A DNA stretch of 26,021 bases from the NCBI GenBank assembly GCA_013378385.1, contig JACAFS010000007.1, positions 1 through 26,021 of the forward strand, given 5' to 3'. Both the position numbers and the translations under genes were made by a program. This document shows positions 1-20,600 of the stretch, piece by piece. Below the pieces are notes generated by a model. That model was not told where the DNA came from and made no database searches. It saw nothing but the letters and a program-made list of their open reading frames with translations. How positions within the stretch are numbered: the stretch's first letter is position 1; every line of letters begins with the position of its first letter. This DNA is from Nitrososphaerota archaeon (lineage in GTDB: Archaea > Thermoproteota > Nitrososphaeria > Nitrososphaerales > UBA57).

Positions 1-1149
1 TGGAGATGGTTTTCCGTACCTCCATCAGGAGGAGATCCTGAATGGGGATTAAATGACGTAAGTAAGGGTAATATCAATCCATATCCTGGAGATTGGGGAA
101 ACACTGATTTGATTGGAGGAGGAGCTGTCTGGAGTATGTTTGGAGTGGATCATGAAGAGAGAACAATATATTTCACAACAGGAAGTAGTTCTGGAGTATT
201 TGACGCAGCATTAAGGCCTGGTCCAAATTTGTTTGCAAGTTCAATAATTGCATTAAATGTAGATAATGGAGAAATGAAATGGTATTATCAAGTTGTACCA
301 CATGACATAAATGACCATGAAGTTGGTTGGAGTGTAATTCTTGCAGAAACAGAAATTAACGGAGAAATGAAAAAAGTTGTAATGGCAGGTTCAAAAACAG
401 ACCATGTTTTCATTCTGGATGCCGATAATGGAAAGCCATTACATACGCCCCTTATGCTAGGAAATAATGCTTTCAATGTACCAAATGATGATGCAGGAAA
501 CAATGCAGATTTAACAATATCGCAGAGATCTTTAGTAGGCAAGTCATTTTGTCCTGGAGGAAACGGTGGAATTGAACATGCAGGAGCATTTTCATCAGGA
601 ATATTATACTACGTAAGTCAGAAAGTCTGTTGGACAGTTACAGAGGGACCGGTAGACTATAAAGGAAAAGATATTCAAGGATTCATTTATGGTTCGGTGC
701 CAGGGGAAAGGCAGAATTCAACGTTGTTCTCAATTGATGTAAATGACATGAGTATTAATTGGGTATTTGAAATGCCAAACCGATATCAAAGTTCAGGAGT
801 AATGGTCAGCGGAGGAGTAGTATACTTAGTAGACAGAGCTAGTGTAATGTACGCGGTAGATGTAGAAACAGGCAAGGAATTACGTAAGATACAATGGGGA
901 GGATTAGGAGCTGGAACAGTCACATTAGGTGCAACGGCAAGAGGTGATATGATGTTATTCGTGCCATCTGGAGGAGGTCAAGTTGCTGCAAATACACCCG
1001 GAATAATTGCAGCTTTCAAGTTACCAGATGATGGAACAGGGCAAACAAACATAATTGGAGATGCTCAAGAAAATATATTCATATTGATTGCATTAGCGGC
1101 AGTAAGTATAGCAATTTATTCGGTTTACAAGAACAAAAATAGAGGTTGA
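1..1149 (+). CDS. PQQ-repeat beta-propeller quinoprotein dehydrogenase-like protein; 5' end lies outside the window; C-terminal TM anchor
   Basis: Frame 1 is open from base 1 with no stop before the track ORF at 109, so the gene continues upstream. WYYQVVPHDINDHEVGWSVIL resembles the W-x-x-Q-x-x-PHD-x-WD-x-x-GV segment of PQQ alcohol/methanol dehydrogenases. Blade-like turns are present (ILDADNGKPL, VDVETGKEL). The hydrophobic tail IFILIALAAVSIAIYSVY is followed by KNKNRG. Confidence 0.75.
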   Translation, partial: WRWFSVPPSGGDPEWGLNDVSKGNINPYPGDWGNTDLIGGGAVWSMFGVDHEERTIYFTTGSSSGVFDAALRPGPNLFASSIIALNVDNGEMKWYYQVVPHDINDHEVGWSVILAETEINGEMKKVVMAGSKTDHVFILDADNGKPLHTPLMLGNNAFNVPNDDAGNNADLTISQRSLVGKSFCPGGNGGIEHAGAFSSGILYYVSQKVCWTVTEGPVDYKGKDIQGFIYGSVPGERQNSTLFSIDVNDMSINWVFEMPNRYQSSGVMVSGGVVYLVDRASVMYAVDVETGKELRKIQWGGLGAGTVTLGATARGDMMLFVPSGGGQVAANTPGIIAAFKLPDDGTGQTNIIGDAQENIFILIALAAVSIAIYSVYKNKNRG

Positions 1150-2771: not shown

Positions 2772-3734
2772 ATGTTAGCAATGGAAATTCATGATAAAAT
2801 TATTGAACAAGTATCTGGTAAAATTATAGGAAAAGCGTTTGAGACCAGATTATTAACAATTGCTTTGTTAGCTCAGGGGCATGCAATAATTGAAGGCGTA
2901 CCAGGTATAGCAAAAACTCTATTAGCAAAATCATTCGCGAATATTCTTGAACTTGAATTTAAACGAGTGCAATTGACATCAGACATGCTGCCGTCAGATA
3001 TAACTGGAACATTTGTATTCAATGTAAAAGAACAAGAATTTTTCTTTAGAAAAGGTCCATTATTTTCAAACATAGTATTAGCAGACGAGATAAACCGAGG
3101 AATACCAAAAACACAATCTGCATTATTAGAAGCCATGCAAGAATACCAAGTGACTGTAGAAGGACAGACAGAAAAACTTTCTCAGCCATTTATGGTAATT
3201 GCAACTCAAAATCCATTAGAAATGAGAGGAACATATCCACTACCAGAGGCGCAATTAGACAGATTTATGTTCAGAATAATCATGGGACTGCCAGACAAAA
3301 CAGAAGAATTAGAGGTGCTAAATACATACGAAAAGGATTCAGAGAGAAACTTAGAATTCACTACGATTAATACAGATATATTAGCCGCAAGAGATGAGAT
3401 TAAATCAAATATAACAATGTCAAAAGAGATAAAAGAATACATAATATCAATAATGAATGCAACAAGAAAAGAAACAGAAGAAATTAATTTAGGAGCAAGT
3501 CCACGTGCATCATTGCATTTAATGCGTGCGTGTAAAGTAAATGCGGCACTAGATGGACGCGATTATGTAACACCTGATGATGTGAAATTGTTATTGTTTC
3601 CAGTACTGAATCATAGATTAATAGTGAATCCAGACTACTTACTTCGTAATACTAAACCATCAGAAGTGTTTAATTATTCAGCCATTAAAGAAATCATAGA
3701 CAAGGCAGCAAATAGTGTAAATCCTCCAAGATGA
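2772..3734 (+). CDS. moxR: MoxR-family AAA+ ATPase (AAA_3)
   Basis: Walker A GVPGIAKT, Walker B VLADEINR, sensor ATQNP, RVQLTSDMLPSDITG and LPEAQLDRF segments. The 320 aa length is typical of MoxR. Confidence 0.93.
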   Translation: MLAMEIHDKIIEQVSGKIIGKAFETRLLTIALLAQGHAIIEGVPGIAKTLLAKSFANILELEFKRVQLTSDMLPSDITGTFVFNVKEQEFFFRKGPLFSNIVLADEINRGIPKTQSALLEAMQEYQVTVEGQTEKLSQPFMVIATQNPLEMRGTYPLPEAQLDRFMFRIIMGLPDKTEELEVLNTYEKDSERNLEFTTINTDILAARDEIKSNITMSKEIKEYIISIMNATRKETEEINLGASPRASLHLMRACKVNAALDGRDYVTPDDVKLLLFPVLNHRLIVNPDYLLRNTKPSEVFNYSAIKEIIDKAANSVNPPR

Positions 3735-5026
3735 GAAAGTTGATAACAAGAAGAGGGTATTCAGTTCTCAGTTCACTCTTCGTGTTTATTACTATTTCTA
3801 TTATTGCAAGTGAATTTATGTTTCTAACAATATCTATATTTATATTTTCAATATTTTTGGTAGAATTACTAATCTTCATATTTTCAGTCAGAGAGCTATC
3901 AAGGGTAAAAATAATTAGAGAGATTTCAAGAAGAAGGTTGTTTGTTGGAGATATAATATCATCGTCGTTGGTTATTCAAAATGACGGATATAGAACAATA
4001 GGATTATTGAAATTGTCAAAAGATGTTCCAGAAGAATTTCAGAGTTTAGAAAATGTAAGTCCATATGCAATGAACTTCACACCAGGAGAGAAAATCAGAT
4101 TTGAATATAAATTGGAGGCATTACAAATGGGAAGAATTAATTTTGGGAAACTAGAATTGAATCTATTCGATAAGTTCGGTTTATTTTACAAGACAAGGGA
4201 GGTAGATAATAAAGATCTAGTATCCGTGTTACCAGATGTAAGGATAGGCAGAGGAAGAATTGATGAGAGTGTGCAAATAGGTTCACTTTCTTCTACAACA
4301 AGATCTAATCCCCTAGGCTCAGATTTTGCAGGAATAAGGGAATATACTTCAGGGGATGAATATAGAAGGATAGCTTGGAAATATATGGCAAAATCATCAA
4401 ATCAGGAACCAAGAATAAAACAATTTGATTTAGATCAGAAAATTGACGTGAATTTAGTAATACTGAATAGTAAATCTATGAACGATGGATCAATTGGCGA
4501 GAGAAAATTAGATTCAGTAATTCAGGCAGCAATAATGATATCATCAGTAGTAGATAACGCAGGAGGAAGGTTAAAGGTAATATTTAGTGACAATAATATA
4601 CCAAAGACAATAAGCGGAAATCAATATGAATTATGCAATAACATATATCAAATAAAGGCGGAAAGTTCATTCAATCCACAAACATTAATCAATCATGCAA
4701 TAACGTATGCAGATCCAGCTTCAATTTTTCTATTTGTTGCAGACAGTCCATTTCCAGAAGACATAGAAATGGATAATTTTAAGAGATTGTTTAATAAGAA
4801 CTTGGTCAACTTGTTTTTCTTAGATACTACATCGTACATATCAACAAAAAACAATTCTAAATTACAACAGAACATTTCAGTATTATTTGAGAATGAAAGA
4901 AAGCATTTACGAAAACAATTAGATATAGGTAGGCAGAAAAGGTTCAGAGTAGATTTATGTACAAAAGACAACATATCAAAGAAGATTTTAGAGAGTTTTA
5001 GCAGGATACAAATTCTAAATGAGTGA
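3731..5026 (+). CDS. DUF58 family protein (N-terminal TM hairpin, vWA-like C-terminal region)
   Basis: ATGA overlap with the moxR stop. Hallmark DUF58 motif DFAGIREYTSGDEYRRIAWK. Two N-terminal TM helices. The vWA-like strand VNLVILNSKSMNDG has N where MIDAS D-x-S-x-S normally has D. Confidence 0.9.
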   Translation: MRKLITRRGYSVLSSLFVFITISIIASEFMFLTISIFIFSIFLVELLIFIFSVRELSRVKIIREISRRRLFVGDIISSSLVIQNDGYRTIGLLKLSKDVPEEFQSLENVSPYAMNFTPGEKIRFEYKLEALQMGRINFGKLELNLFDKFGLFYKTREVDNKDLVSVLPDVRIGRGRIDESVQIGSLSSTTRSNPLGSDFAGIREYTSGDEYRRIAWKYMAKSSNQEPRIKQFDLDQKIDVNLVILNSKSMNDGSIGERKLDSVIQAAIMISSVVDNAGGRLKVIFSDNNIPKTISGNQYELCNNIYQIKAESSFNPQTLINHAITYADPASIFLFVADSPFPEDIEMDNFKRLFNKNLVNLFFLDTTSYISTKNNSKLQQNISVLFENERKHLRKQLDIGRQKRFRVDLCTKDNISKKILESFSRIQILNE

Positions 5027-5985
5027 TTGATATGGATACAAGATACAAATTATTACTTTTATTAGGAATTTCTCTGCCGTATATAATTCAGTTTTATTAT
5101 GTAGGATATTATAGATTTTTATTCTCTTTAGTAAGTAGTGTGTTTGGAGCAAGCCTGTATTCTTTTTCAGCATTAATGGCATTATTGACTATTTTTACTC
5201 TCGTAAATAGGATTTCAAAGGGTCCAGGTGCTTTACAAGATTCATTAATAATTACTACGCTGACAACTCCTGTAGTGTTTCCGTCACTAATCATGGTAGT
5301 ATTATTAATCACATCATTCGGAAGCTTGCCTAGTCAGTATTTTGGTGCTGCGGCAGACTTGTATCTAGTAGGAATAGCGTCAATGGTGATAGTTCTGCCA
5401 ATATTAGGAATAATTATACAATGGTCAGGCATGATAAAATCTCGTGGAACGCCATTTTCTCATATAATTTACACAATGATAATATTCAGTTTGTTGAATT
5501 TTGTAGCATTTAGTAGTTTCATAGGTGAAGGCATAAATCAACAATTAATTGGACATGGAACAAACATAGTACTTAACGCGATATTTATCATTCAAGTAAT
5601 AATTGCAAATATATTTCAGACAGATCTACCTGTTGCATCAAGGCTAAATCCGATTCAGCCATTTATTGGTACCGTACCCGTCAATACAATATTTGCATTA
5701 TCGTCGGCATTGTATCTGTATATGAGATTATTTGGAAGGCATACAATAGATAAAGTAGAGACAGATGGAATAAACACACAAACATTCTTGAATATGAACA
5801 ATTTAGGAAGAATAAGCATAACATTAATTTTTGCAATATTATTGAATTTTACTTTGATTTTAGGAATATCTACAATTATTGGATCAGTAGCAACAGTAAT
5901 AAAAACAGTAAGTCTGATGATTGTATCGTCATTCATAATAATCATATTATTTTATAGTTATCAATGGAGGAAAGAATTATCATGA
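5023..5985 (+). CDS. Polytopic integral membrane protein (about 8 TM), unknown family
   Basis: The GTG start overlaps the DUF58 TGA; an alternative ATG lies at 5032. The protein is almost entirely hydrophobic helices with no soluble domain. Confidence 0.6.
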   Translation: MIDMDTRYKLLLLLGISLPYIIQFYYVGYYRFLFSLVSSVFGASLYSFSALMALLTIFTLVNRISKGPGALQDSLIITTLTTPVVFPSLIMVVLLITSFGSLPSQYFGAAADLYLVGIASMVIVLPILGIIIQWSGMIKSRGTPFSHIIYTMIIFSLLNFVAFSSFIGEGINQQLIGHGTNIVLNAIFIIQVIIANIFQTDLPVASRLNPIQPFIGTVPVNTIFALSSALYLYMRLFGRHTIDKVETDGINTQTFLNMNNLGRISITLIFAILLNFTLILGISTIIGSVATVIKTVSLMIVSSFIIIILFYSYQWRKELS

Positions 5986-7676
5986 AAATATTTGTAATAT
6001 TTTTAGCGTTACTACTAATTATTCCATTAGCGCATTCACAAGTTCAGGTAGAGAATTCAGCAAGCTTTAGGATTGGTTATTCGTCGGAGAAATTATTTAG
6101 TAGCGATTTAGGAATGCTTTCATATGTACGTGGTGAAACAATCTGGTTACAGGTTTCTGGTTCTCACATGATTGAACTACATAATAAAGAAGGAATTGTA
6201 GTTTCAGGATACGTATATGATGGGCGTCAGACTTCAATATACACATTTGAAGAATCAGACATATTGGGAACGTGGAGATTAATCATTGACAACAGTGTTT
6301 ATGAGTTAGAATTAGTAGACCAATCATTAGAAGTAGAAGAAAATATTGTAGAATTCCTATTAATGAATGATTCATTAATCGTCAAGGGTGAAATTAGGCC
6401 TATATTTACAGATATTCCTCTAGAATCAGAGATAATTATAGCGAAAAATAGAAAATCAGATTTTACAACCGTGCAAACAGAATTAGTGATAGAACGAGCA
6501 AACACCAATATTGGAATAACATACAATGTTGGTGAGAAAGAAACAACACTATTCATACAGCCATATATAGACAACATTAGAAGTGAGGGAGAATATTCAG
6601 AAATCGGTCTACAGAACATATATGCCTGGGCAGAATTGACGTCAGAGATTGCTTTAGTAAAGAAAACTGAGAGTTCTAGATTTACTACCTATGTTGATGA
6701 ACCGATTGTTGAAACAGATAGAACTTATTTTGAGATAACTGATGTGGCGAGAAAAGGAATTAATATGACAATTCCAGGACCGGGATTGACGGATGAACCA
6801 TGGACAGTGCCACTCAAATATGGAAGAGCTTTATTGTCAGTATATCTGGAATTTGAGGGGCAGATATTTGTAAACAGAATACCTGTAATAATTTTAGAAG
6901 ACAAGATAATAATCAATCCAGAATTAATTATACCGGTAAGTTCATTTGAAGGCAAGATAGAGTATAGAGAAATAATAAGCATAGAGGAAAACATGGAATT
7001 AGAATTTCTTTTGATAAGTAAGATAAATGGAATAGATAGAATTTTTTATGATACAGACAGACCTGCTTTGACAAAAATTAATGTAATAGATAGAACAAAC
7101 AACGAGAAGTTGGATAAGTATAATATAGTATTTGAAGAGAATGTAGAAGCGATAAAGATTAATCAAACCACATACATTATTGGGAATCAAGAATTAATCA
7201 ATAATTTTGCATCGTCCTGGAGTATAACCAATGCGAAATTATTCATAAATTCGTTCAGCATATTGGATTCAATTTTGGACAGTAGAATGAATGAAGATGG
7301 AACTATTGAGATAATTGCAAATGTAGGAATAGCAAGAATTCAAGTAATTGATTCTACAGGCTCAATATCAGGAAATGGAGAGATAGTAATAAGAAAATTA
7401 GGTTCAGATATGGAAGAGTTTTTGATTACAGAATGGAATGGAAGCGATGTAAAAATAATATTACCAGAAGGAAGATATTTGGCCAGATTAGAAAGTGAGA
7501 ATATACAAGGAGAGACAGAATTTGAGATATCCATGGATGAGAAAGAGGTGTTAATCATAGTAGATTCAATGTATGGAATGTCAACAAACATATGGATTTT
7601 CATATTATCAACAATAATTACAATAGAAATCGTGATAATATACACGATTTGGAAGAAAAATATAAAAGGAATATAA
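5982..7676 (+). CDS. Large predicted surface protein: signal peptide, beta-rich ectodomain, C-terminal TM anchor
   Basis: The ATG at 5982 overlaps the upstream TGA (ATGA) and yields a signal peptide MKIFVIFLALLLIIPLAHSQ. The track start at 5964 is also possible. C-terminal TM IWIFILSTIITIEIVIIYTIW is followed by KKNIKGI. VKIILPEGRYLARLESEN resembles the beta-sandwich motif in ORF 1151-1936. Confidence 0.6.
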   Translation: MKIFVIFLALLLIIPLAHSQVQVENSASFRIGYSSEKLFSSDLGMLSYVRGETIWLQVSGSHMIELHNKEGIVVSGYVYDGRQTSIYTFEESDILGTWRLIIDNSVYELELVDQSLEVEENIVEFLLMNDSLIVKGEIRPIFTDIPLESEIIIAKNRKSDFTTVQTELVIERANTNIGITYNVGEKETTLFIQPYIDNIRSEGEYSEIGLQNIYAWAELTSEIALVKKTESSRFTTYVDEPIVETDRTYFEITDVARKGINMTIPGPGLTDEPWTVPLKYGRALLSVYLEFEGQIFVNRIPVIILEDKIIINPELIIPVSSFEGKIEYREIISIEENMELEFLLISKINGIDRIFYDTDRPALTKINVIDRTNNEKLDKYNIVFEENVEAIKINQTTYIIGNQELINNFASSWSITNAKLFINSFSILDSILDSRMNEDGTIEIIANVGIARIQVIDSTGSISGNGEIVIRKLGSDMEEFLITEWNGSDVKIILPEGRYLARLESENIQGETEFEISMDEKEVLIIVDSMYGMSTNIWIFILSTIITIEIVIIYTIWKKNIKGI

Positions 7677-8875: not shown

Positions 8876-9310
8876 ATGATGGAAAAGAAAATACAGCAAT
8901 TGATTATTGATTTGGCAATGTTTTCAATTGGTTTGGCATTAACAATTGCAGGTGTATTTCTAACTGACGGAATATGGTTAGTTAGTGGAGTAATATTAGT
9001 AGCTATTCCTGTTATAAGATCCAAGGGGTTAGGTAGTTTTTCAAAAATAAGTGGAATAAATAATATAAACATAGATGTAAATATTGAAAAAGAAGCATGC
9101 ATGGGAGTAGGAAGTTGCGTGGCAATAGCGCCACAAGTATTCAAAATTGACGAAGCGAGTTTAAAATCTTCATTCATGGCATATGCACCACTCGAAGTAT
9201 TGGATAAGAAAGGAGCCAGTAACCAAACAATTTTAGAAGCTGCACAATCCTGTCCATATAAAGCCATAATAGTTGAAGATAAGGATTCAAACGAACAGAT
9301 TTTTCCATAA
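8876..9310 (+). CDS. Membrane-tethered single-cluster ferredoxin (two N-terminal TM helices plus a Pyrococcus-type Fd domain with three Cys ligands)
   Basis: CMGVGSCVAIAPQVF ... AAQSCPYKAI matches the C-x2-X-x2-C ... C-P pattern of monocluster ferredoxins, with Val at the variable second-ligand position. N-terminal hydrophobic helices are FSIGLALTIAGVFL and IWLVSGVILVAIPVI. Confidence 0.75.
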   Translation: MMEKKIQQLIIDLAMFSIGLALTIAGVFLTDGIWLVSGVILVAIPVIRSKGLGSFSKISGINNINIDVNIEKEACMGVGSCVAIAPQVFKIDEASLKSSFMAYAPLEVLDKKGASNQTILEAAQSCPYKAIIVEDKDSNEQIFP

Positions 9311-9396: not shown

Positions 9397-9969
9397 ATGT
9401 CTAGTCGCGTAGAAACTGAGAAAGTAGCAACGTGGTTTGTATATGTTGCAGTAATTAATACAATTTTATCATTACTATATGTTACAGTATTTTTACTTCC
9501 AGATACAATTGGAAATGGAAACATCCCACCTAAAGGAGATTTATTTTCGCTATCCACGGCGGTGGCGACTTTTCCTGGAACTTGGTTATTAATAGCATTC
9601 CTCATACACGTTTCTGTAGGAATATTAGGAATGGTAGGATGGGCAGGAACTTACTATATATCTTCTAGAGTAATGAATAAGAAAACTACTAACAAATTAT
9701 TGGCACGAGGTCATCTTGTTGTCACCGCATTAGGAGTTTATGTTACAACGACATTCTTTGCATTAGCAGGTTTCATAGGAGGGCGAGCAATGCTTCCTGA
9801 TACAGCTTGTGTAGTACTTGTTGATCAATGTATGGGAGCTGGTATGGCAATTGTTCAGACTTTAATTACATTCACGGTAATTCCAACAGGTGCAGGAATG
9901 GGATTGGCACTGACTGGAACGGCAATAGGAATAATAAATATACTAGTAACGCTAAGACAAGAACAGTAA
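9397..9969 (+). CDS. Four-TM membrane protein, paralogue A of a tandem pair, unknown family
   Basis: Shares INTI...LLP...FPGTWL...G(I/V)(L/I)GM(V/L)GW...PTG...L(I/V)G(I/V)(I/L)NI with the next ORF. Hydrophobic throughout. Confidence 0.6.
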   Translation: MSSRVETEKVATWFVYVAVINTILSLLYVTVFLLPDTIGNGNIPPKGDLFSLSTAVATFPGTWLLIAFLIHVSVGILGMVGWAGTYYISSRVMNKKTTNKLLARGHLVVTALGVYVTTTFFALAGFIGGRAMLPDTACVVLVDQCMGAGMAIVQTLITFTVIPTGAGMGLALTGTAIGIINILVTLRQEQ

Positions 9970-9975
9970 ATTCGT

Positions 9976-10470
9976 ATGTCAGATTTAATTGAAACAAATT
10001 TAGTGTCAAAGTATTTTCTAATACTTGCTTTAATTAATACAATCGCAGCTATTTGTTTTACTTTACCAATACTGCTTCCTACTTCAGGACTTCCATTAAT
10101 TATAGGTGCTTTTCCTGGAACATGGCTCATAGTAGGATATTTTGTATTCCTAATAGTAGGAGTGATTGGAATGCTAGGATGGAGTATAGTTTATAGTTCT
10201 ATGCCATCAATGTTCAATAAACATCAAACATCTAAGAGATTATCAATAATTCAGATAGTATTCAGTGAACTTGCAATATACGGTGTTGCGTCAACAATTT
10301 CATTTATAGGATGGCAAGGCGGTCAAGCATTAAGACAGGGTTTGTCCATTGCATCTGTAGGATTTTTAATTGAACCGTTTGTTTTACCTACAGGAGTATT
10401 TGTTGCACTGGTATTATTAGGACAATTAATTGGCGTGTTAAATATATTTTCGACAATCAGGATGAAATAA
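9976..10470 (+). CDS. Four-TM membrane protein, paralogue B of a tandem pair, unknown family
   Basis: Starts 6 nt after paralogue A's stop. Collinear similarity to A, for example AFPGTWLIVGYFVFLIVGVIGMLGWS versus TFPGTWLLIAFLIHVSVGILGMVGWA. Confidence 0.6.
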   Translation: MSDLIETNLVSKYFLILALINTIAAICFTLPILLPTSGLPLIIGAFPGTWLIVGYFVFLIVGVIGMLGWSIVYSSMPSMFNKHQTSKRLSIIQIVFSELAIYGVASTISFIGWQGGQALRQGLSIASVGFLIEPFVLPTGVFVALVLLGQLIGVLNIFSTIRMK

Positions 10471-10475
10471 TATAA

Positions 10476-12017
10476 TTATTTAGATTTGCCATGGTATACA
10501 TCATTAATTCGTAGAATAGAATTAGCAGCTTCAGTAGCAGTAATTAACATTTGTCTCTTCATATAGGAAGACTCGATAATTTTTGGGTTTTTTGTAGATG
10601 ATAACTTCCTATTTACATAATCAAGGCAGACATACTTGTCAGATGACGGTTGAGAATTCCTAGCCGCCACAATTAGGTCAATATTATTAAAACCTGCATT
10701 GAGTGCAAGAGTGATCGGGATTAGTTCTATAGCGTTAGAATATGATTTAATTGCCAATTGTTGGAGACCGTCAATAGGAACGGAAAATGAGCGAAGTTGA
10801 TTTGAAAGAATAAACTCGAACCAACCACGTCCGAATACTGCATACGGATTTTGTAGGGAAACTTGGATCAATGATAGAATTCTAGTAAGAATATCCTCAT
10901 AAAGATCACTATATCGTTGTGTTTCGGTACGAATTAGGATAGTATTGGATTTATGATTAGATCCATGATCAAGTACAAACCAGTTTTTATCATACATTTT
11001 CATAGATGTTAGATTTGAACAATAACCAACAGTATTTGAAGTTATTTCTTTCACATTGTTTGTTATAATACAACCAGTAGATTTTTCAATAAGTTCAAGA
11101 GATTTCATCGGAACACGTTTTACTGTAAGAATACCTAATGAATCAAGTTTAGAAATTAATGAATCATCAATAGTTTTATGACTAAATAATACATTTATGC
11201 CAGCGTCAATTAATGGTTTAATAGAATCAGATAATATTTGTTTTTCAGTTTTTTTGAATTCTCCCAAAAGATTTGGGTCGTCAATCGTAATTTCTTTTTT
11301 TATTCCGTCCGTAGAGATTGCCAAAGGTGATGAAAGAATTGCGATTCTTGCATCGGTAATTGGCAAGTGTTCAGATTTAGATAATGGGTCTCCATCAAAA
11401 ACAATTCCGTCGACCAATCTACTATTCAATGTAGAATCTCCTCCATGGCTCAGTATGTTTACATAATTGGTAGTCTTATAATCAGATAAAGAAGGATCAA
11501 TACTAGAGATCGCATCTATTGTTAATTGTGAAAGTTTGTCAGATTCCAATTTTCCAAACTTAGAAGATAGAGAGGAGTAAACAAGAGTTTTCCATTGAGA
11601 TTTACTTTTGATGGGAAACTTGAGAGAATCAAGTAAAGATAGAGAAAAATCTAGAGATTTGTTATATCCGTCAACAATAATATTGGGATGGATGCCTTTT
11701 TCCAGATTGAGGCGTGCCTGTTCAAGTAAAAATGAAGTAAGAAGAATGGCAGAAATTGTACCATCGCCCACGTGTTTTACCATGGTTTCCGAGACGTCCA
11801 ACAGGATTTTAGCAACAGGATGGTCTAGTTCGGATTTCTCAAGAATAGAATTGCCATCACGAAGAACGAATGCATCGCCATAATTATTCACGGTTAATTT
11901 TTCAAGTCCAAATGGTCCAAATGTACTAAGAGTCATTTGACCAATCAATTTTGATGCGTCAAAAAGATTCTGTCTGGAAGAATTTAATTTAGATTTAGAA
12001 TAATTGTTTTTGTTCAT
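10476..12017 (-). CDS. Group II chaperonin (thermosome/CCT) homologue with degenerate ATP-site motifs
   Basis: Collinear with thermosome subunits: GPFGLEKL (canonical GPKGMDKM), RDGNSIL (NDGATIL), HPVAKILLDVS, VGDGTIS (GDGTTT), GIHPNIIVDGY, VKRVPMKSLELIEKSTGC, AIELIPITLALNAG, ILRINDV. The GGGAxE position reads GRGWFE. Confidence 0.85.
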   Translation of the reverse strand: MNKNNYSKSKLNSSRQNLFDASKLIGQMTLSTFGPFGLEKLTVNNYGDAFVLRDGNSILEKSELDHPVAKILLDVSETMVKHVGDGTISAILLTSFLLEQARLNLEKGIHPNIIVDGYNKSLDFSLSLLDSLKFPIKSKSQWKTLVYSSLSSKFGKLESDKLSQLTIDAISSIDPSLSDYKTTNYVNILSHGGDSTLNSRLVDGIVFDGDPLSKSEHLPITDARIAILSSPLAISTDGIKKEITIDDPNLLGEFKKTEKQILSDSIKPLIDAGINVLFSHKTIDDSLISKLDSLGILTVKRVPMKSLELIEKSTGCIITNNVKEITSNTVGYCSNLTSMKMYDKNWFVLDHGSNHKSNTILIRTETQRYSDLYEDILTRILSLIQVSLQNPYAVFGRGWFEFILSNQLRSFSVPIDGLQQLAIKSYSNAIELIPITLALNAGFNNIDLIVAARNSQPSSDKYVCLDYVNRKLSSTKNPKIIESSYMKRQMLITATEAANSILRINDVYHGKSK

Positions 12018-13495
12018 TTATTTCCACGAATTAGAGCTATAAAGATGCCAAGTACGGCAATTATAAAGCCAATAAAGAAAGCTTGACTAAGGCCTCCGAC
12101 ATATTGTGTAACGGATATTGATCCACCCACATTATAGATGTCTTCAGAAAGAAACAATCCAACGGTAGAAGCTCCAATAGCAAGACTTAGAGCCTGTCCA
12201 AGATGTCTCATTGTTCCTAACATACCATTGGCTAAACTTCGGTCCTCAGAGCTTACTGACGAGAGATTTGCATTAGTATTTGGTGCAGCAAACAAGGAAA
12301 GACCAATTCCCATAATCACGAGTGAGACTTCGATGAATAATATCGAAGACGACATAGTAAGACGACTCATTAAAAGGAGAGAGACAGCTACAATTGCCAT
12401 CCCTAAAGCACTAAGTTCTCGAGAAGATATGAGTTTAGAGTATTTGCCAACGGCAATAGAAGTAATTACCACTGTAAAAGGAAATGCAGAAATCATAAAA
12501 GCGGCTTCAATTGGATCGATTAGTCTGATCAGTTGTAAATAAAAAGAAATCATAACAAGAGCATTGTAATGTGAAGTATACATAAACAAAGCAGTAAGAT
12601 TAGTAGACAAAAATAACCTATTTTTACTAAGCATTTTGATATCAAGTATAGGATTTTTGGCTTTAAATTCAACTATAATGAATACAAGCAGAAATGCTAG
12701 TGAGAGTATGGGAAGAATCAGTAATGGAATTGATATAGCAATGCGTGACCAGATATGAAAATTACCTAACATTGGAAGAAATATCTCTTCGATGTAGAGA
12801 TCTACACTAGTCCAGCTTTCCCTAGGTCCAAATGTAATGGCAATAAGAAGGCATGATAAGGAAGATGCAAAAAAGAAAGAACCAAGCCAATCCATAGATT
12901 TATTGAGAGATTTTTTACTTTCGGTAAGTTTAGATGATACAACAGGAAGCAGAGCAAGTCCCAAAGGAACATTTATGAAGAAAACATTCCTCCAGCCAAT
13001 ATATTCAGTAATTACTGCGCCTAATGCGGGACCAGTAGCTATTGCAAGGTATATTACAGTAACATGAATACTCATTGCCATTCTTCGTTCTTCAGGAGGA
13101 AAAGCGTCAGTAATTATTGCACGACTATTAACTAATAATAGTGCAGCCCCGATAGCCTGAACAATTCTGAATATTAATAATTCCGCAATAGTTTGTGACA
13201 TTCCACTAAAAAATGAACCTATTACAAATATTCCCAATCCAATTACAAAATACTTTTTTCTTCCATGAATATCAGAGAATCGACCAAAGCTGGTCATAAA
13301 AGTTGTAAGTATAATCAAATAGATTACAGAAACCCATATTGCAATTTCAATTCCAGTTTGGAAATCTCTTGCAATATTTGGTAACACCAGTGCAACAATA
13401 CCGGTATCTAGAGGTGCCAAAAATGTAGCTATATTGACAACGACCAGAGTCATCCATTTATGTTCAGAAAGATAATCAGAAAGAGATTTGGACAT
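12014..13495 (-). CDS. MFS transporter, DHA2 (EmrB/QacA-like, 14-TM) type
   Basis: LDTGIVALVLPNIARDF, GRFSDIHGRKKYFVIGLGIF (MFS motif A-like), RIVQAIGAALL and WRNVFFINVPLG are typical of the DHA2 drug:H+ antiporter family. The 493 aa sequence has many TM helices. Confidence 0.88.
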   Translation of the reverse strand: MSKSLSDYLSEHKWMTLVVVNIATFLAPLDTGIVALVLPNIARDFQTGIEIAIWVSVIYLIILTTFMTSFGRFSDIHGRKKYFVIGLGIFVIGSFFSGMSQTIAELLIFRIVQAIGAALLLVNSRAIITDAFPPEERRMAMSIHVTVIYLAIATGPALGAVITEYIGWRNVFFINVPLGLALLPVVSSKLTESKKSLNKSMDWLGSFFFASSLSCLLIAITFGPRESWTSVDLYIEEIFLPMLGNFHIWSRIAISIPLLILPILSLAFLLVFIIVEFKAKNPILDIKMLSKNRLFLSTNLTALFMYTSHYNALVMISFYLQLIRLIDPIEAAFMISAFPFTVVITSIAVGKYSKLISSRELSALGMAIVAVSLLLMSRLTMSSSILFIEVSLVIMGIGLSLFAAPNTNANLSSVSSEDRSLANGMLGTMRHLGQALSLAIGASTVGLFLSEDIYNVGGSISVTQYVGGLSQAFFIGFIIAVLGIFIALIRGNK

Positions 13496-13559: not shown

Positions 13560-14162
13560 TTAAGTTTTTTCTGATTGTTCACGGATTTCATTTTCTGTGA
13601 CAATAAGTATATCTATACCATCGCCAGATGCAGCATCACGATTTACTGCAGAACGAATAGATTTTATAGCCAAATCAACTGCTTCTTGTTCAGTAAGGTT
13701 TTGCTTATATTCTGATTCAACAACACCTATTGCCAATTCGGCACCAGTGCCAACAGTAGCATATTCATCAGGAATAACAGAACCTAATGGATCAAGAACA
13801 TATACAGCAGGTTTACTATTTTCGATGCCTGCAAGTATCACTTGAGTCATCATAGGAAACCATTTTTGTTGATACATAATTACACCCATTAACTTTGCAA
13901 TAGAATTAGGTGGAACTGGTTGATTTGTCTCTAATTGTAAGATTTTTGTGTGTGCTGTTACTTCACGCATAAGTATATTCATATCAGCAATCATGCCTGC
14001 TGCGACTGCACCCACTGTATCAGTAATTTTGAAGACTTTTTTTCCAGATCGGCTGACAAGATGTGTGCCATAGGAAACGCGTTTTTCTGCGCCTAAAACA
14101 ACTCCGTTGTCAAATGTTATACCAACTGCAGTTGCTCCTGGAATCTGATAAGGCATTGCCAT
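13560..14162 (-). CDS. psmB: Proteasome beta subunit
   Basis: A short propeptide (MAMPYQIPGA) is followed by TAVGITFDNGVVLGAEKR with the N-terminal Thr. GAVAAGMIADMN and TVGTGAELA segments are present. Length is 200 aa. Confidence 0.92.
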   Translation of the reverse strand: MAMPYQIPGATAVGITFDNGVVLGAEKRVSYGTHLVSRSGKKVFKITDTVGAVAAGMIADMNILMREVTAHTKILQLETNQPVPPNSIAKLMGVIMYQQKWFPMMTQVILAGIENSKPAVYVLDPLGSVIPDEYATVGTGAELAIGVVESEYKQNLTEQEAVDLAIKSIRSAVNRDAASGDGIDILIVTENEIREQSEKT

Positions 14163-17049: not shown

Positions 17050-17907
17050 ATGAAGAATGGAGATTTAATATTACTAGATTTTACTGCAAAAGTGAAAGAT
17101 ACAGGGGATCTTATAGAAACAACCATAGAAGAAGAAGGTAAGAAAATAGGTGAATTTGATGAGGATTTCGTTTTTAAGCCTAGATTAGTAGCAGTTGGAG
17201 CAAGTTGGGTTCTAAAAGGCCTAGATGAGGCATTAGAAGAAGCTGAAGTAGGAAATCAAGTAAATATAGAGATTTCGCCTGAGAAAGGATTTGGAGTTAG
17301 AGATACTTCGAAGACTAGACTTATACCGTTGAGAAAATTTAGAGATAAAGCAGATCAAGTCACTGTGGGTGCAGAAATCGAAATAGATGGAAGAATAGGC
17401 ATTGTCAGATTTGTCGGATCAGGGAGAGCTCAAATAGATTTTAATCACAGATATGCAGGAAGAACATTAGAATATAACTTTACAGTGGTCAAGAAGATTG
17501 AACAGAATGAAGAAATGATTAATGAGATAATTGAAAGAAGAATTCCAAATAGCATCGGAAAAATCAATGTAAAAGTTGAACAGAATATTGCAAGCATAGT
17601 AATTCCCGATGAATATTTCTTATTGGAAGGTTTGCAAATAATTAAGAGAGCTATTGCAAATGAAATTATGAAATATGTGAATGATGTAAATGAGGTATCT
17701 TACATTGAACAGTTTAAGGAAGATAAGAAAGATGCAGAAAAATCGGTAGCGGATGAATCATTAGAAGAAACATCTTCAGATGATTCGGTAAAAGAAGTTC
17801 AGGATGATTCGGTAAAAGAAGTTCAGGATGATTCGGTAAAAGAAGTTCAGGATGATTCGGTAAAAGAAGTTCAGGATGATTCGGTAAAAGAAGTTCAGAA
17901 GGACTAA
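17050..17907 (+). CDS. Long-type archaeal FKBP peptidyl-prolyl isomerase with IF insert and an acidic repeat tail
   Basis: GDLILLDFTAKVKDTGDLIETT, VLKGLDEALEEAEVG and IDFNHRYAGRTLEYNFTV are typical of SlyD/archaeal FKBPs. The C-terminus carries 5 x DDSVKEVQ. Confidence 0.9.
   Translation: MKNGDLILLDFTAKVKDTGDLIETTIEEEGKKIGEFDEDFVFKPRLVAVGASWVLKGLDEALEEAEVGNQVNIEISPEKGFGVRDTSKTRLIPLRKFRDKADQVTVGAEIEIDGRIGIVRFVGSGRAQIDFNHRYAGRTLEYNFTVVKKIEQNEEMINEIIERRIPNSIGKINVKVEQNIASIVIPDEYFLLEGLQIIKRAIANEIMKYVNDVNEVSYIEQFKEDKKDAEKSVADESLEETSSDDSVKEVQDDSVKEVQDDSVKEVQDDSVKEVQDDSVKEVQKD
17779..17898 (+). repeat. Perfect 24-bp tandem repeat, 5 copies (GATGATTCGGTAAAAGAAGTTCAG), coding for DDSVKEVQ
   Basis: Five head-to-tail identical units can be read directly in the sequence, in frame with the FKBP CDS. 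Confidence 0.97.
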
Positions 17908-20177: not shown

Positions 20178-20600
20178 ATGAACGTTGATCAACAAACTCA
20201 AGTATTGCTTCAGCAAATGAAGCAGCTAGAATCATACCTAACTGACATCGGTAACAGAGAAAATATGTCAATGAATGCGATAGTAGAAAGCAGAGCTTCT
20301 GTCAAAGCAACGGAAATTTTAAGCGACACTGAACCAAAAGAGATATTATTCCCAATTGGATCAGGGCTATTAACTAAGGTAGGGGATGAAAAAGCATTCT
20401 TTGTCAATATAGGTGCAGGAATTACGGTAGAAAAAGACAAAGAGGAAGTGAAAGAATTTCTCAATGAGAGAATTAAAGATATAGAAAAATCTATAGAAAC
20501 ATTAAGTATACAAAAGAAGGACATGGCACAGCAATACAACAGTATTAGAGCTGCATTGAACAATATTGTACAGGGCCAACAAAATGTTAGACAAAGTTAA
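20178..20600 (+). CDS. pfdA: Prefoldin alpha subunit
   Basis: Coiled-coil ends flank ILFPIGSGLLTKV...AFFVNIGAGITVEKDKEEVKEFL, the alpha-type double beta-hairpin. It sits in the conserved archaeal eif6-pfdA-ftsY order. Confidence 0.85.
   Translation: MNVDQQTQVLLQQMKQLESYLTDIGNRENMSMNAIVESRASVKATEILSDTEPKEILFPIGSGLLTKVGDEKAFFVNIGAGITVEKDKEEVKEFLNERIKDIEKSIETLSIQKKDMAQQYNSIRAALNNIVQGQQNVRQS

Follow-up and report, generated by a model that had tools for sequence, protein, structure and literature searches.

A fast-evolving group II chaperonin paralogue with an arginine in place of the catalytic aspartate in heterotrophic marine Thaumarchaeota

The window studied here is the whole 26,021-nucleotide stretch of contig JACAFS010000007.1 (assembly GCA_013378385.1) from a Nitrososphaerota archaeon, and it carries an intact open reading frame (ORF) of 513 amino acids (aa) with an ATG start, which encodes a complete paralogue of the thermosome, the group II chaperonin of archaea. 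In this protein the Asp of the intermediate-domain helix, one of the two acids of ATP hydrolysis, is replaced by Arg379, and the Asp is missing from every one of the 14 members of the family to which the protein belongs, while the gene itself is under purifying selection. It is likely, by analogy with mutants of the equivalent Asp, that canonical ATP hydrolysis was lost and that the gene nevertheless kept a function. Our favoured overall reading, to which we assign a probability of about 0.5, is that the gene encodes a lineage-specific, non-hydrolysing group II chaperonin paralogue which may act on its own.

The nucleotide site in the window protein and its family

In canonical chaperonins two Asp residues, one in the stem loop and one in the intermediate-domain helix, activate the lytic water that attacks the gamma-phosphate. 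In the structure described for a related chaperonin, these two Asp have that role, the Asp and Thr of the phosphate-binding loop (P-loop) hold the beta- and gamma-phosphates together with Mg2+, the Lys of the nucleotide-sensing loop (Lys165, equivalent to Lys153 of the window protein) contacts the gamma-phosphate, the backbone of a GGG motif contacts the ribose and a Pro lines the adenine pocket (PMC5635000). Removal of the helix Asp has known consequences, as Mm-cpn D386A binds ATP without hydrolysing it and stays open (PMC5019054), and Ch-CPN D373A has 4.7% of its activity left (PMC5635000).

The motifs of the window protein were read from exact coordinates by translation and compared in four independent alignments (HMMER pairwise alignments to PDB chains, MAFFT with 13 sequences, MAFFT with 178 sequences, and L-INS-i with 23 sequences), all of which pair them with GP[KR]GMDKM, [IV]TNDG, GDGTT[TS], the sensing-loop Lys, ERxxxD[AS], GGGAxE and VIEP (Table 1). 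The initial annotation had claimed four altered motifs (GPFGLEKL, GDGTIS, EDILTRI and GRGWFE), and all of them are present in a gapless register; that list can be extended, since the stem loop TNDG has become LRDG, the Asp of GMDK has become Glu, and VIEP reads IIES. From the invariant Arg363 to the invariant Gly396 there are 33 residues in the window protein and in the T. acidophilum thermosome beta subunit alike. With no gap in this stretch the register is fixed, and it is Arg379 that occupies the place of the catalytic Asp. A shift that would restore the Asp was considered and is ruled out by the gapless stretch between the two anchors in all four alignments, the nearest acidic residues to Arg379 being Asp375 (four positions before it) and Glu374 (five before it).

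HMMER, run exhaustively over 1.84 billion cluster representatives, gave 3770 relatives, of which few are close, namely P0009 (45% identity), P0069 (38%), P0073 (30%) and fragments of the query's own group, with the remaining relatives at or below approximately 31% identity. A further word-based protein search, made with the family profile, brought up no candidates beyond those of the first. One extra sublineage (loci L094 and L097, 508–509 aa) was reached via the neighbouring membrane-protein gene, a scan of genome contigs with a query alignment that included canonical thermosomes had the family loci L014 and L015 among the matches listed, and a metagenome scan with family-specific patterns found only 16 loci. 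The family is narrow. When 159 group II sequences are placed in a neighbour-joining tree, its 14 representatives, from four sublineages, form one clade in 100 of 100 bootstraps, with root-to-tip distances of 1.0–1.3, compared with 0.41–0.44 in canonical thermosomes and a mean of 0.74 ± 0.16 in the other sequences of the set. The window protein itself lies at 1.2, on the kind of long thaumarchaeal branch that the initial annotation had proposed to look for; the deeper placement of the clade depends on very short internal branches and is probably affected by long-branch attraction.

Residues were counted in the 14 family members and in the 145 nearest group II representatives outside the family. 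At the position of the catalytic Asp, the family has Arg (12 of 14) or Ser (2 of 14), so that scoring of the nucleotide site finds the canonical hydrolysis residue gone in the whole clade (14/14), whereas the others have Asp in 105 and Asn in 24 of 145 cases, and Arg in none. The two Ser members, from L094 and L097, read E-D-x-x-R-S, with the Arg one position earlier. Four positions before the catalytic Asp the exchange is mirrored, as the family carries Asp (13/14) or Glu (1/14) where 122 of the 145 others carry Arg. The stem-loop Thr is Leu, Ile or Val in all 14 members and Thr or Ser in all 145 others, the stem-loop Asn became Arg, Lys, Gln or Asp, and the Asp of GMDK became Glu, Asn, Lys, Ala, Ser or Thr. 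The second catalytic acid, Asp54 of the stem loop, is kept in 12 of 14 members and lost in P0069/L015, where the loop reads QAG.

The residues that bind the nucleotide tell a different story, and here the initial annotation, which had described the ATP-binding motifs as eroded, was only partly right. Gly34-Pro35, Lys40, Gly84-Asp85-Gly86, Lys153, Gly396, Gly398, Glu401 and Glu482 are kept in 14 of 14 members, so the core of the binding site is invariant in the family; damage is seen in the marine subclade of the window alone, where Lys/Arg36 became Phe, the Pro of VIEP became Ser and the GGG loop reads G[RLSC]GW[FY]E, the deeper members keeping GGG[AS]xE. The change of GDGTTT to GDGTIS, cited as a further sign of erosion, is real but a weak sign, as Ile occupies that position in 15 of the 145 other representatives; one family sublineage retains a GDGTTS P-loop. 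Read together, these patterns show a stepwise erosion in which the family ancestor altered the two elements that close on the gamma-phosphate and kept the ground-state site, after which the subclade of the window began to damage the binding site.

The same residues allow another explanation, that the protein is still an ATPase with a relocated acid, in which Asp375 (or Glu374) would activate the water together with Asp54, while Arg379 and Arg53 would stabilise the transition state as arginine fingers do, and the protein would cycle, possibly with altered kinetics. Asp or Glu at position 375 and Arg379 are indeed conserved together, Asp54, Asp85 and Lys153 are kept, and a basic gamma-phosphate contact, Arg155, is needed for hydrolysis in Ch-CPN (PMC5635000). 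However, a residue at i-4 of the helix lies approximately 6 Å from the original position, the pattern is broken in the two sublineages already mentioned (P0069/L015 without Asp54, and L094/L097 with E-D-x-x-R-S), Arg and Trp in the ribose-contacting GGG loop look like decay of the site and not like its retuning, and a charge swap between i and i+4 is more simply explained as preservation of a salt bridge. We consider a relocated acid improbable.

Several observations concern other thermosome paralogues. Among the 145 group II representatives nearest to the query, 40 are without the catalytic Asp (24 with Asn, the rest with Lys, Ser, Thr, Cys and others), so that thermosome paralogues of this kind may be common in uncultured archaea, in a sample that is biased to divergent sequences. 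One type (P0012–P0030) is a thermosome paralogue of 564 aa that ends in a His-rich C-terminal tail; it is annotated as an ordinary thermosome subunit and lacks both catalytic acids (stem loop ITKHG, helix Asp to Asn, with GDGTIS as its P-loop); its sole organism-named member, P0015, is “thermosome subunit alpha [Candidatus Nitrosotenuis sp. DW1]”, from an ammonia oxidiser. The sister group of this His-tailed paralogue (P0031–P0034, 580–582 aa) keeps both acids. Two other sequences, P0068 (1057 aa) and P0071 (1047 aa), each combine two complete thermosome-like halves in one predicted protein, through a tandem fusion or through a gene call that ran on.

Group II membership, selection and possible mode of action

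The claim of the initial annotation that the protein is collinear with group II chaperonins over three domains and the lid was borne out by Pfam, by matches in the PDB, and by the predicted structure. The Pfam family PF00118 (Cpn60_TCP1) scores 349 bits with a cut-off of 34.3, and residues 27–508 align with profile positions 3–486 of 490. Thermosome chains of the PDB match with E-values from 1e-65 to 3e-81, and thermosome and CCT chains together from 1e-42 to 3e-81 (HMMER pairwise), with 27–29% identity to solved thermosome subunits across approximately 500 residues. CCT models score 171–254 bits versus 339–343 bits for thermosome models, and the top matches are archaeal thermosomes. GroEL models reach only 17–39 bits, in the N-terminal 100–190 residues alone and with cut-offs of 352–600, which argues against group I. 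In group III (bacterial, archaeal-like) chaperonins the intermediate-domain loop is shortened, the nucleotide-sensing loop is absent, and Arg replaces the sensing Lys (PMC5635000), whereas here the sensing loop is full length and gap-free, and Lys153 is invariant. The scores lie below the curated NCBIfam cut-offs of thermosome_alpha (343.2, cut-off 450), thermosome_beta (339.3, cut-off 400) and thermosome_arch (341.8, cut-off 671.1), which is why the naming of family members at NCBI is inconsistent (“hypothetical protein”, “TCP-1/cpn60 chaperonin family protein”, “thermosome subunit beta”).

The AlphaFold2 model, built from an alignment of 21 sequences, has a predicted local distance difference test (pLDDT) score of 85 and a predicted template modelling (pTM) score of 0.83, with low confidence limited to the N-terminus, residues 31–50, and the tip of the lid. 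In Foldseek, the model matches closed Mm-cpn with TM-scores of 0.88–0.90 (500–518 columns), and 0.87–0.90 when the KS-1 and T. acidophilum subunits are included. The equatorial, intermediate and apical domains and the built-in helical lid are all present, the alignment is gap-free in the lid region, and the prediction has the stem-loop strands and the lid in position; since the best-matching solved structures are mostly closed forms, the closure of the model carries no evidence on the protein's real state. The initial annotation had also noted that the protein is shorter than typical subunits, and this can be located in the MAFFT alignment of 13 sequences: the N-terminus is approximately 9–15 residues shorter, and a C-terminal tail of 20–40 residues is missing. 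The family has an N-terminal motif of its own, KLNxxQ[QE]N.

The gene is under purifying selection and is not decaying. For the least saturated pair of orthologues the ratio of nonsynonymous to synonymous substitution rates (dN/dS) is 0.098 at a dS of 0.78, with 0.048 for the neighbouring transporter of the major facilitator superfamily (MFS) and 0.031 for the proteasome subunit in the same pair, and near-identical environmental copies differ by 8–10 nucleotides (nt), all but two of them at third codon positions. At the same time the gene evolves 2–4 times faster than its neighbours: identity to the most distant marine relative is 46% for the chaperonin-like protein, 57–64% for citrate synthase, RTC and MoxR, and 77–88% for the membrane proteins TM190 and TM164, the MFS transporter and the proteasome subunit. 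The divergence is even over the domains (identity 0.47 equatorial, 0.45 intermediate, 0.43 apical).

A long branch that outpaces its neighbours, together with a progressive erosion of motifs within the marine subclade, might suggest a relic, that is, a duplicated thermosome gene without remaining function which is drifting towards a pseudogene. Against this stand a dN/dS of about 0.1 at an unsaturated dS, ORFs that are intact (508–530 aa) across four sublineages, even at identities as low as 30%, 66 invariant positions over the 11-sequence family alignment, the excess of third-codon-position changes in the environmental copies, and retention of the gene in genomes estimated at about 0.84–1.05 Mb (PMC7300363). 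A relic is scarcely credible on these grounds, and the pseudogene reading is ruled out by the dN/dS and the intact ORFs.

How, then, might such a protein work? With the helix Asp replaced by Arg379 and the stem-loop Thr-Asn by Leu-Arg, canonical activation of water would be lost; canonical hydrolysis would probably be absent, as it is lost in mutants of the equivalent Asp. The exchange between Asp375 and Arg379 (i, i+4) would be a reversed intrahelical salt bridge, which was probably preserved. Because the ancestor of the family kept Gly-Pro, the Asp of the P-loop, the Lys of the sensing loop, GGG and Glu482, it probably still bound nucleotide, without turnover, while the window protein possibly binds it poorly or not at all, since its subclade introduced Arg and Trp in the GGG loop and lost Lys/Arg36. 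There would be no ATP-driven cycle of opening and closing of its own, and to hypothesize further, the protein could be a specialised holdase or an assembly platform, as a homo-oligomer or even a monomer, and not a general foldase.

That it acts on its own and not in mixed rings is a part of this reading which we hold only tentatively. It is preferred because the divergence is fast and even, and because the termini are remodelled: shortened termini, which are normally part of the inter-subunit sheet, and fast divergence do not suggest an interface that is locked to slowly evolving canonical partners. The competing view is that the protein is a silent subunit in mixed rings with canonical thermosomes, non-hydrolysing, closed by its neighbours, and making the ring inherently asymmetric, much as eukaryotic CCT has a low-ATP-affinity half. 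Archaeal thermosomes are commonly hetero-oligomeric (e.g., 1A6D alpha/beta), the equatorial domain is the one nearest to canonical thermosomes (31–33% identity versus 17–26% in the other two domains), the stem-loop strands and lid are predicted in place, and the kept sensing Lys and binding residues would make sense for a nucleotide-sensing subunit in an allosteric ring. On the other hand, fast evolution affects all domains and the termini are remodelled, identity to canonical subunits is only 27–33%, about half the similarity between archaeal paralogues that are known to co-assemble, and none of the eight CCT subunits is known to lack the catalytic Asp, so that there is no exact precedent. 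Cluster names and the contexts of P0024 and P0072 link no canonical partner gene to the same genome. We regard mixed rings as rather unlikely.

Some points weigh against the favoured reading of a non-hydrolysing, self-sufficient paralogue. The family mostly keeps Asp54 and always keeps Lys153 and the Asp of the P-loop, and Asp375 is just one helical turn from the lost acid, so residual or alternative catalysis is possible; moreover, a protein wholly indifferent to nucleotide would not be expected to conserve its nucleotide site so strictly across the family. CCT subunits are only approximately 30% identical to each other and co-assemble, which makes the argument against mixed rings an indirect one. 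Finally, the missing link of a canonical thermosome gene to the lineage, in the same cluster names and contexts, also counts here; according to the abstract of a review, the thermosome is found in all archaea (PMC5220055), and marine Thaumarchaeota have been reported with two thermosome copies (PMC7265257).

Gene neighbourhood and host

Table 1. Positions in the window of the chaperonin-like gene, of its nucleotide-site motifs and of the surrounding genes.
Feature	Position	Strand	Remarks
Thermosome-like (group II chaperonin) paralogue	10476..12017	-	complete gene; ORF, Pfam, NCBIfam, PDB, AlphaFold2/Foldseek
GPFGLEKL, aa 34–41	11895..11918	-	Gly-Pro and Lys40 kept; Lys/Arg36 to Phe, Asp of GMDK to Glu
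VLRDG, aa 51–55, stem loop	11853..11867	-	canonical [IV]-T-N-D-G; second catalytic acid Asp54 kept
GDGTIS, aa 84–89, phosphate-binding loop	11751..11768	-	Gly-Asp-Gly invariant; second Thr to Ile
LSSKF, aa 150–154, nucleotide-sensing loop	11556..11570	-	gamma-phosphate Lys153 kept
EDILTRI, aa 374–380, intermediate-domain catalytic helix	10878..10898	-	canonical E-R-x-x-x-D is E-D-x-x-x-R: catalytic Asp to Arg379, Arg to Asp375
GRGWFE, aa 396–401, canonical GGGAxE ribose/adenine loop	10815..10832	-	Arg397 and Trp399 introduced
IIES, aa 480–483, for V-I-E-P	10569..10580	-	Glu482 kept
MFS transporter (EmrB/QacA type, 493 aa), upstream	12014..13495	-	stop overlaps the chaperonin-like ATG in ATGA; named in PMC7300363 Data Set S3/S4
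TM164, membrane protein without known family	9976..10470	+	converges on the chaperonin-like gene, 5 nt between stops
TM190, TM164 paralogue (35% identity)	9397..9969	+	four predicted transmembrane helices, conserved Cys pair
Ferredoxin-like protein, single 4Fe-4S cluster	8876..9310	+	Pfam Fer4_13/Fer4_15; first gene of the ferredoxin-TM190-TM164 run
MoxR-type AAA ATPase, DUF58 protein and two family-less proteins	2772..7676	+	co-directional; family-less proteins of ~317–320 aa and 564–570 aa
Proteasome beta	13560..14162	-	
FKBP26-type prolyl isomerase	17050..17907	+	
Prefoldin alpha	20178..20600	+	
Animal-type haem peroxidase, 575 aa	23213..24940	+	Pfam An_peroxidase, 483 bits
Pyrroloquinoline quinone (PQQ)-dependent dehydrogenase, C-terminal part	109..1149	+	gene runs off the window start

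In the marine subclade and in a sublineage of higher GC content (L015, L114), the MFS gene is followed by the chaperonin-like gene, and on the opposite strand the genes of the ferredoxin-like protein, TM190 and TM164 converge on it. Across lineages the convergent stop codons are 0–7 nt apart or overlap by 4 nt, and as the stops of TM164 and the chaperonin-like gene are so close, there is no room for terminators and the transcripts probably overlap. In L094 and L097 an ABC substrate-binding protein stands upstream instead of the MFS transporter, with TM190 and TM164 retained, and in L099, of the P0073-type sublineage, neither the transporter nor the TM pair adjoins the chaperonin-like gene. TM164 adjoins it at every locus with enough flank in three of the four sublineages. 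The MFS transporter was considered as a conserved functional partner and was rejected, because it is replaced in L094/L097 and absent in L099, TM190 and TM164 being more constant (three of four sublineages).

TM190 and TM164 share the motifs FPGTW, GxxGMxGW and PTG, and neither could be assigned to a Pfam family, even with the threshold relaxed to E = 10. The AlphaFold2 model of TM190 consists of four long helices, for which the best Foldseek match, to part of cbb3 oxidase subunit I, is not significant (E = 0.023, nothing reaching 0.001); the weak resemblance is to a four-helix part of haem-copper oxidase subunit I (TM-score 0.54–0.66). Homologues of TM190 turned up only in lineages that have the chaperonin-like gene, in a search of limited sensitivity. 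The ferredoxin-like protein corresponds to cluster_966, scored as gained in the heterotrophic lineage (PMC7300363), and a hydrophobic N-terminal stretch suggests that it may be membrane-anchored. All this suggests a functional link of the chaperonin-like gene with the membrane-protein genes, in a region that is syntenic by descent and in which the genes are convergent and not operonic. To take this further, the paralogue could be an archaeal counterpart of the BBS-type proteins, a nucleotide-latched or nucleotide-independent pseudo-ATPase serving as a dedicated assembly or holding factor for the co-gained module of ferredoxin-like protein, TM190 and TM164 in the energy metabolism of the host lineage, in which case Arg379 may pair with Asp54, so that the intermediate domain would stay down with no need to hydrolyse ATP. 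Such a specific role seems quite unlikely.

Farther out, the 564-aa family-less protein of the run that includes MoxR equals cluster_2805, gained in the heterotrophic lineage (PMC7300363). No more than 9 kb separates the proteasome, prolyl isomerase and prefoldin genes from the chaperonin-like gene; we read these proteostasis genes as probably ordinary conserved synteny. The window, from an archaeal genome, also encodes the animal-type haem peroxidase, which equals cluster_2470, one of the gains scored for the branch of the heterotrophic marine Thaumarchaeota (PMC7300363). PQQ dehydrogenases adjoin the chaperonin-like gene in L099 and are two genes away in L015.

The host belongs to the heterotrophic marine Thaumarchaeota (HMT), for which genomes estimated at about 0.84–1.05 Mb and many PQQ dehydrogenases have been described (Aylward and Santoro 2020, PMC7300363). 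In Data Set S3 of that study cluster_214 is listed with Cpn60_TCP1 at 345.2 bits, a length of 514, presence in 8 genomes, and a gain on the HMT branch. We matched the chaperonin-like gene to cluster_214 indirectly, by length (514, apparently including the stop), Pfam score and gene order, and in the tables lengths and contig order agree as well for the peroxidase (576), the 564-aa protein (565), the ferredoxin-like protein (145) and the MFS transporter (494) of the window. The paralogue is thus already catalogued as a gained gene in a supplementary table of 2020, without analysis. In the literature searched there was no account of the catalytic-site state of cluster_214, nor of any archaeal paralogue without the catalytic Asp, and the gene was not found among expression data in the text supplements of PMC7300363.

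Comparison with known systems

Group II chaperonins are textbook ATP-driven machines, and their known ATPase-degenerate relatives, of the BBS/MKKS type, are eukaryotic. If the favoured reading of a non-hydrolysing paralogue is true, the chaperonin fold also has an ATP-independent use in archaea, and the family would be a simple, independent system for how rings tolerate or exploit inactive subunits, which bears on the evolution of the eight-subunit CCT. There is also a practical problem of annotation, as the labels of the family vary and so many of the closest group II representatives (40/145) are without the catalytic Asp.

With canonical thermosomes (1A6D; Mm-cpn, 3KFB; KS-1, 1Q3R) the window protein shares the three-domain fold with lid, Gly-Pro, Gly-Asp-Gly, the sensing Lys, G-x-G and Glu482. 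It differs from them in the Arg for the helix Asp with the accompanying swap, the LR stem loop, the Glu for the Asp of GMDK, and GRGW, and also in the absence of the C-terminal tail, a shorter N-terminus, an approximately threefold longer branch, and scores under the NCBIfam cut-offs. Engineered Mm-cpn D386A and Ch-CPN D373A have the equivalent Asp removed as well, but these are single laboratory changes to Ala in a canonical protein, whereas here the Arg is natural and fixed, and its neighbours are co-adapted.

The initial annotation had likened the protein to BBS6/MKKS, and this stands as an analogy and not as kinship. In the vertebrate proteins BBS6/MKKS, BBS10, BBS12 and CCT8L, Gly-Pro is kept, the hydrolysis motifs are degenerate and activity is thought to be lost or changed (PMC2846930), so that both groups are paralogues derived from group II chaperonins with Gly-Pro retained and a degenerate hydrolysis motif. 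The resemblance is functional only, as the BBS/MKKS-type proteins arose independently from eukaryotic CCT, whereas the archaeal family is a clade of its own among archaeal sequences. In addition, the catalytic triad of MKKS still has its Asp (PMC2846930), unlike that of the archaeal family.

Extra thermosome paralogues have been described in Thaumarchaeota, namely an Hsp60 homologue at the urease locus of Nitrososphaerales and Nitrosocaldus (PMC5797428) and a paralogue in the hadal metagenome-assembled genome MTA1 (PMC7265257). Compared by their descriptions only, these are likewise extra, phylogenetically distinct thermosome-like genes tied to a neighbourhood, but they lie in urease or Na+/solute-symporter loci, whereas this gene lies between a transporter and a membrane-protein pair, and the 26-kb window contains no urease genes. 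With the low-ATP-affinity subunits of CCT/TRiC the family would share, if it assembles in mixed rings, the idea of a ring with subunits that add little or no turnover; it would differ in the catalytic Asp, which no CCT subunit is known to lack.

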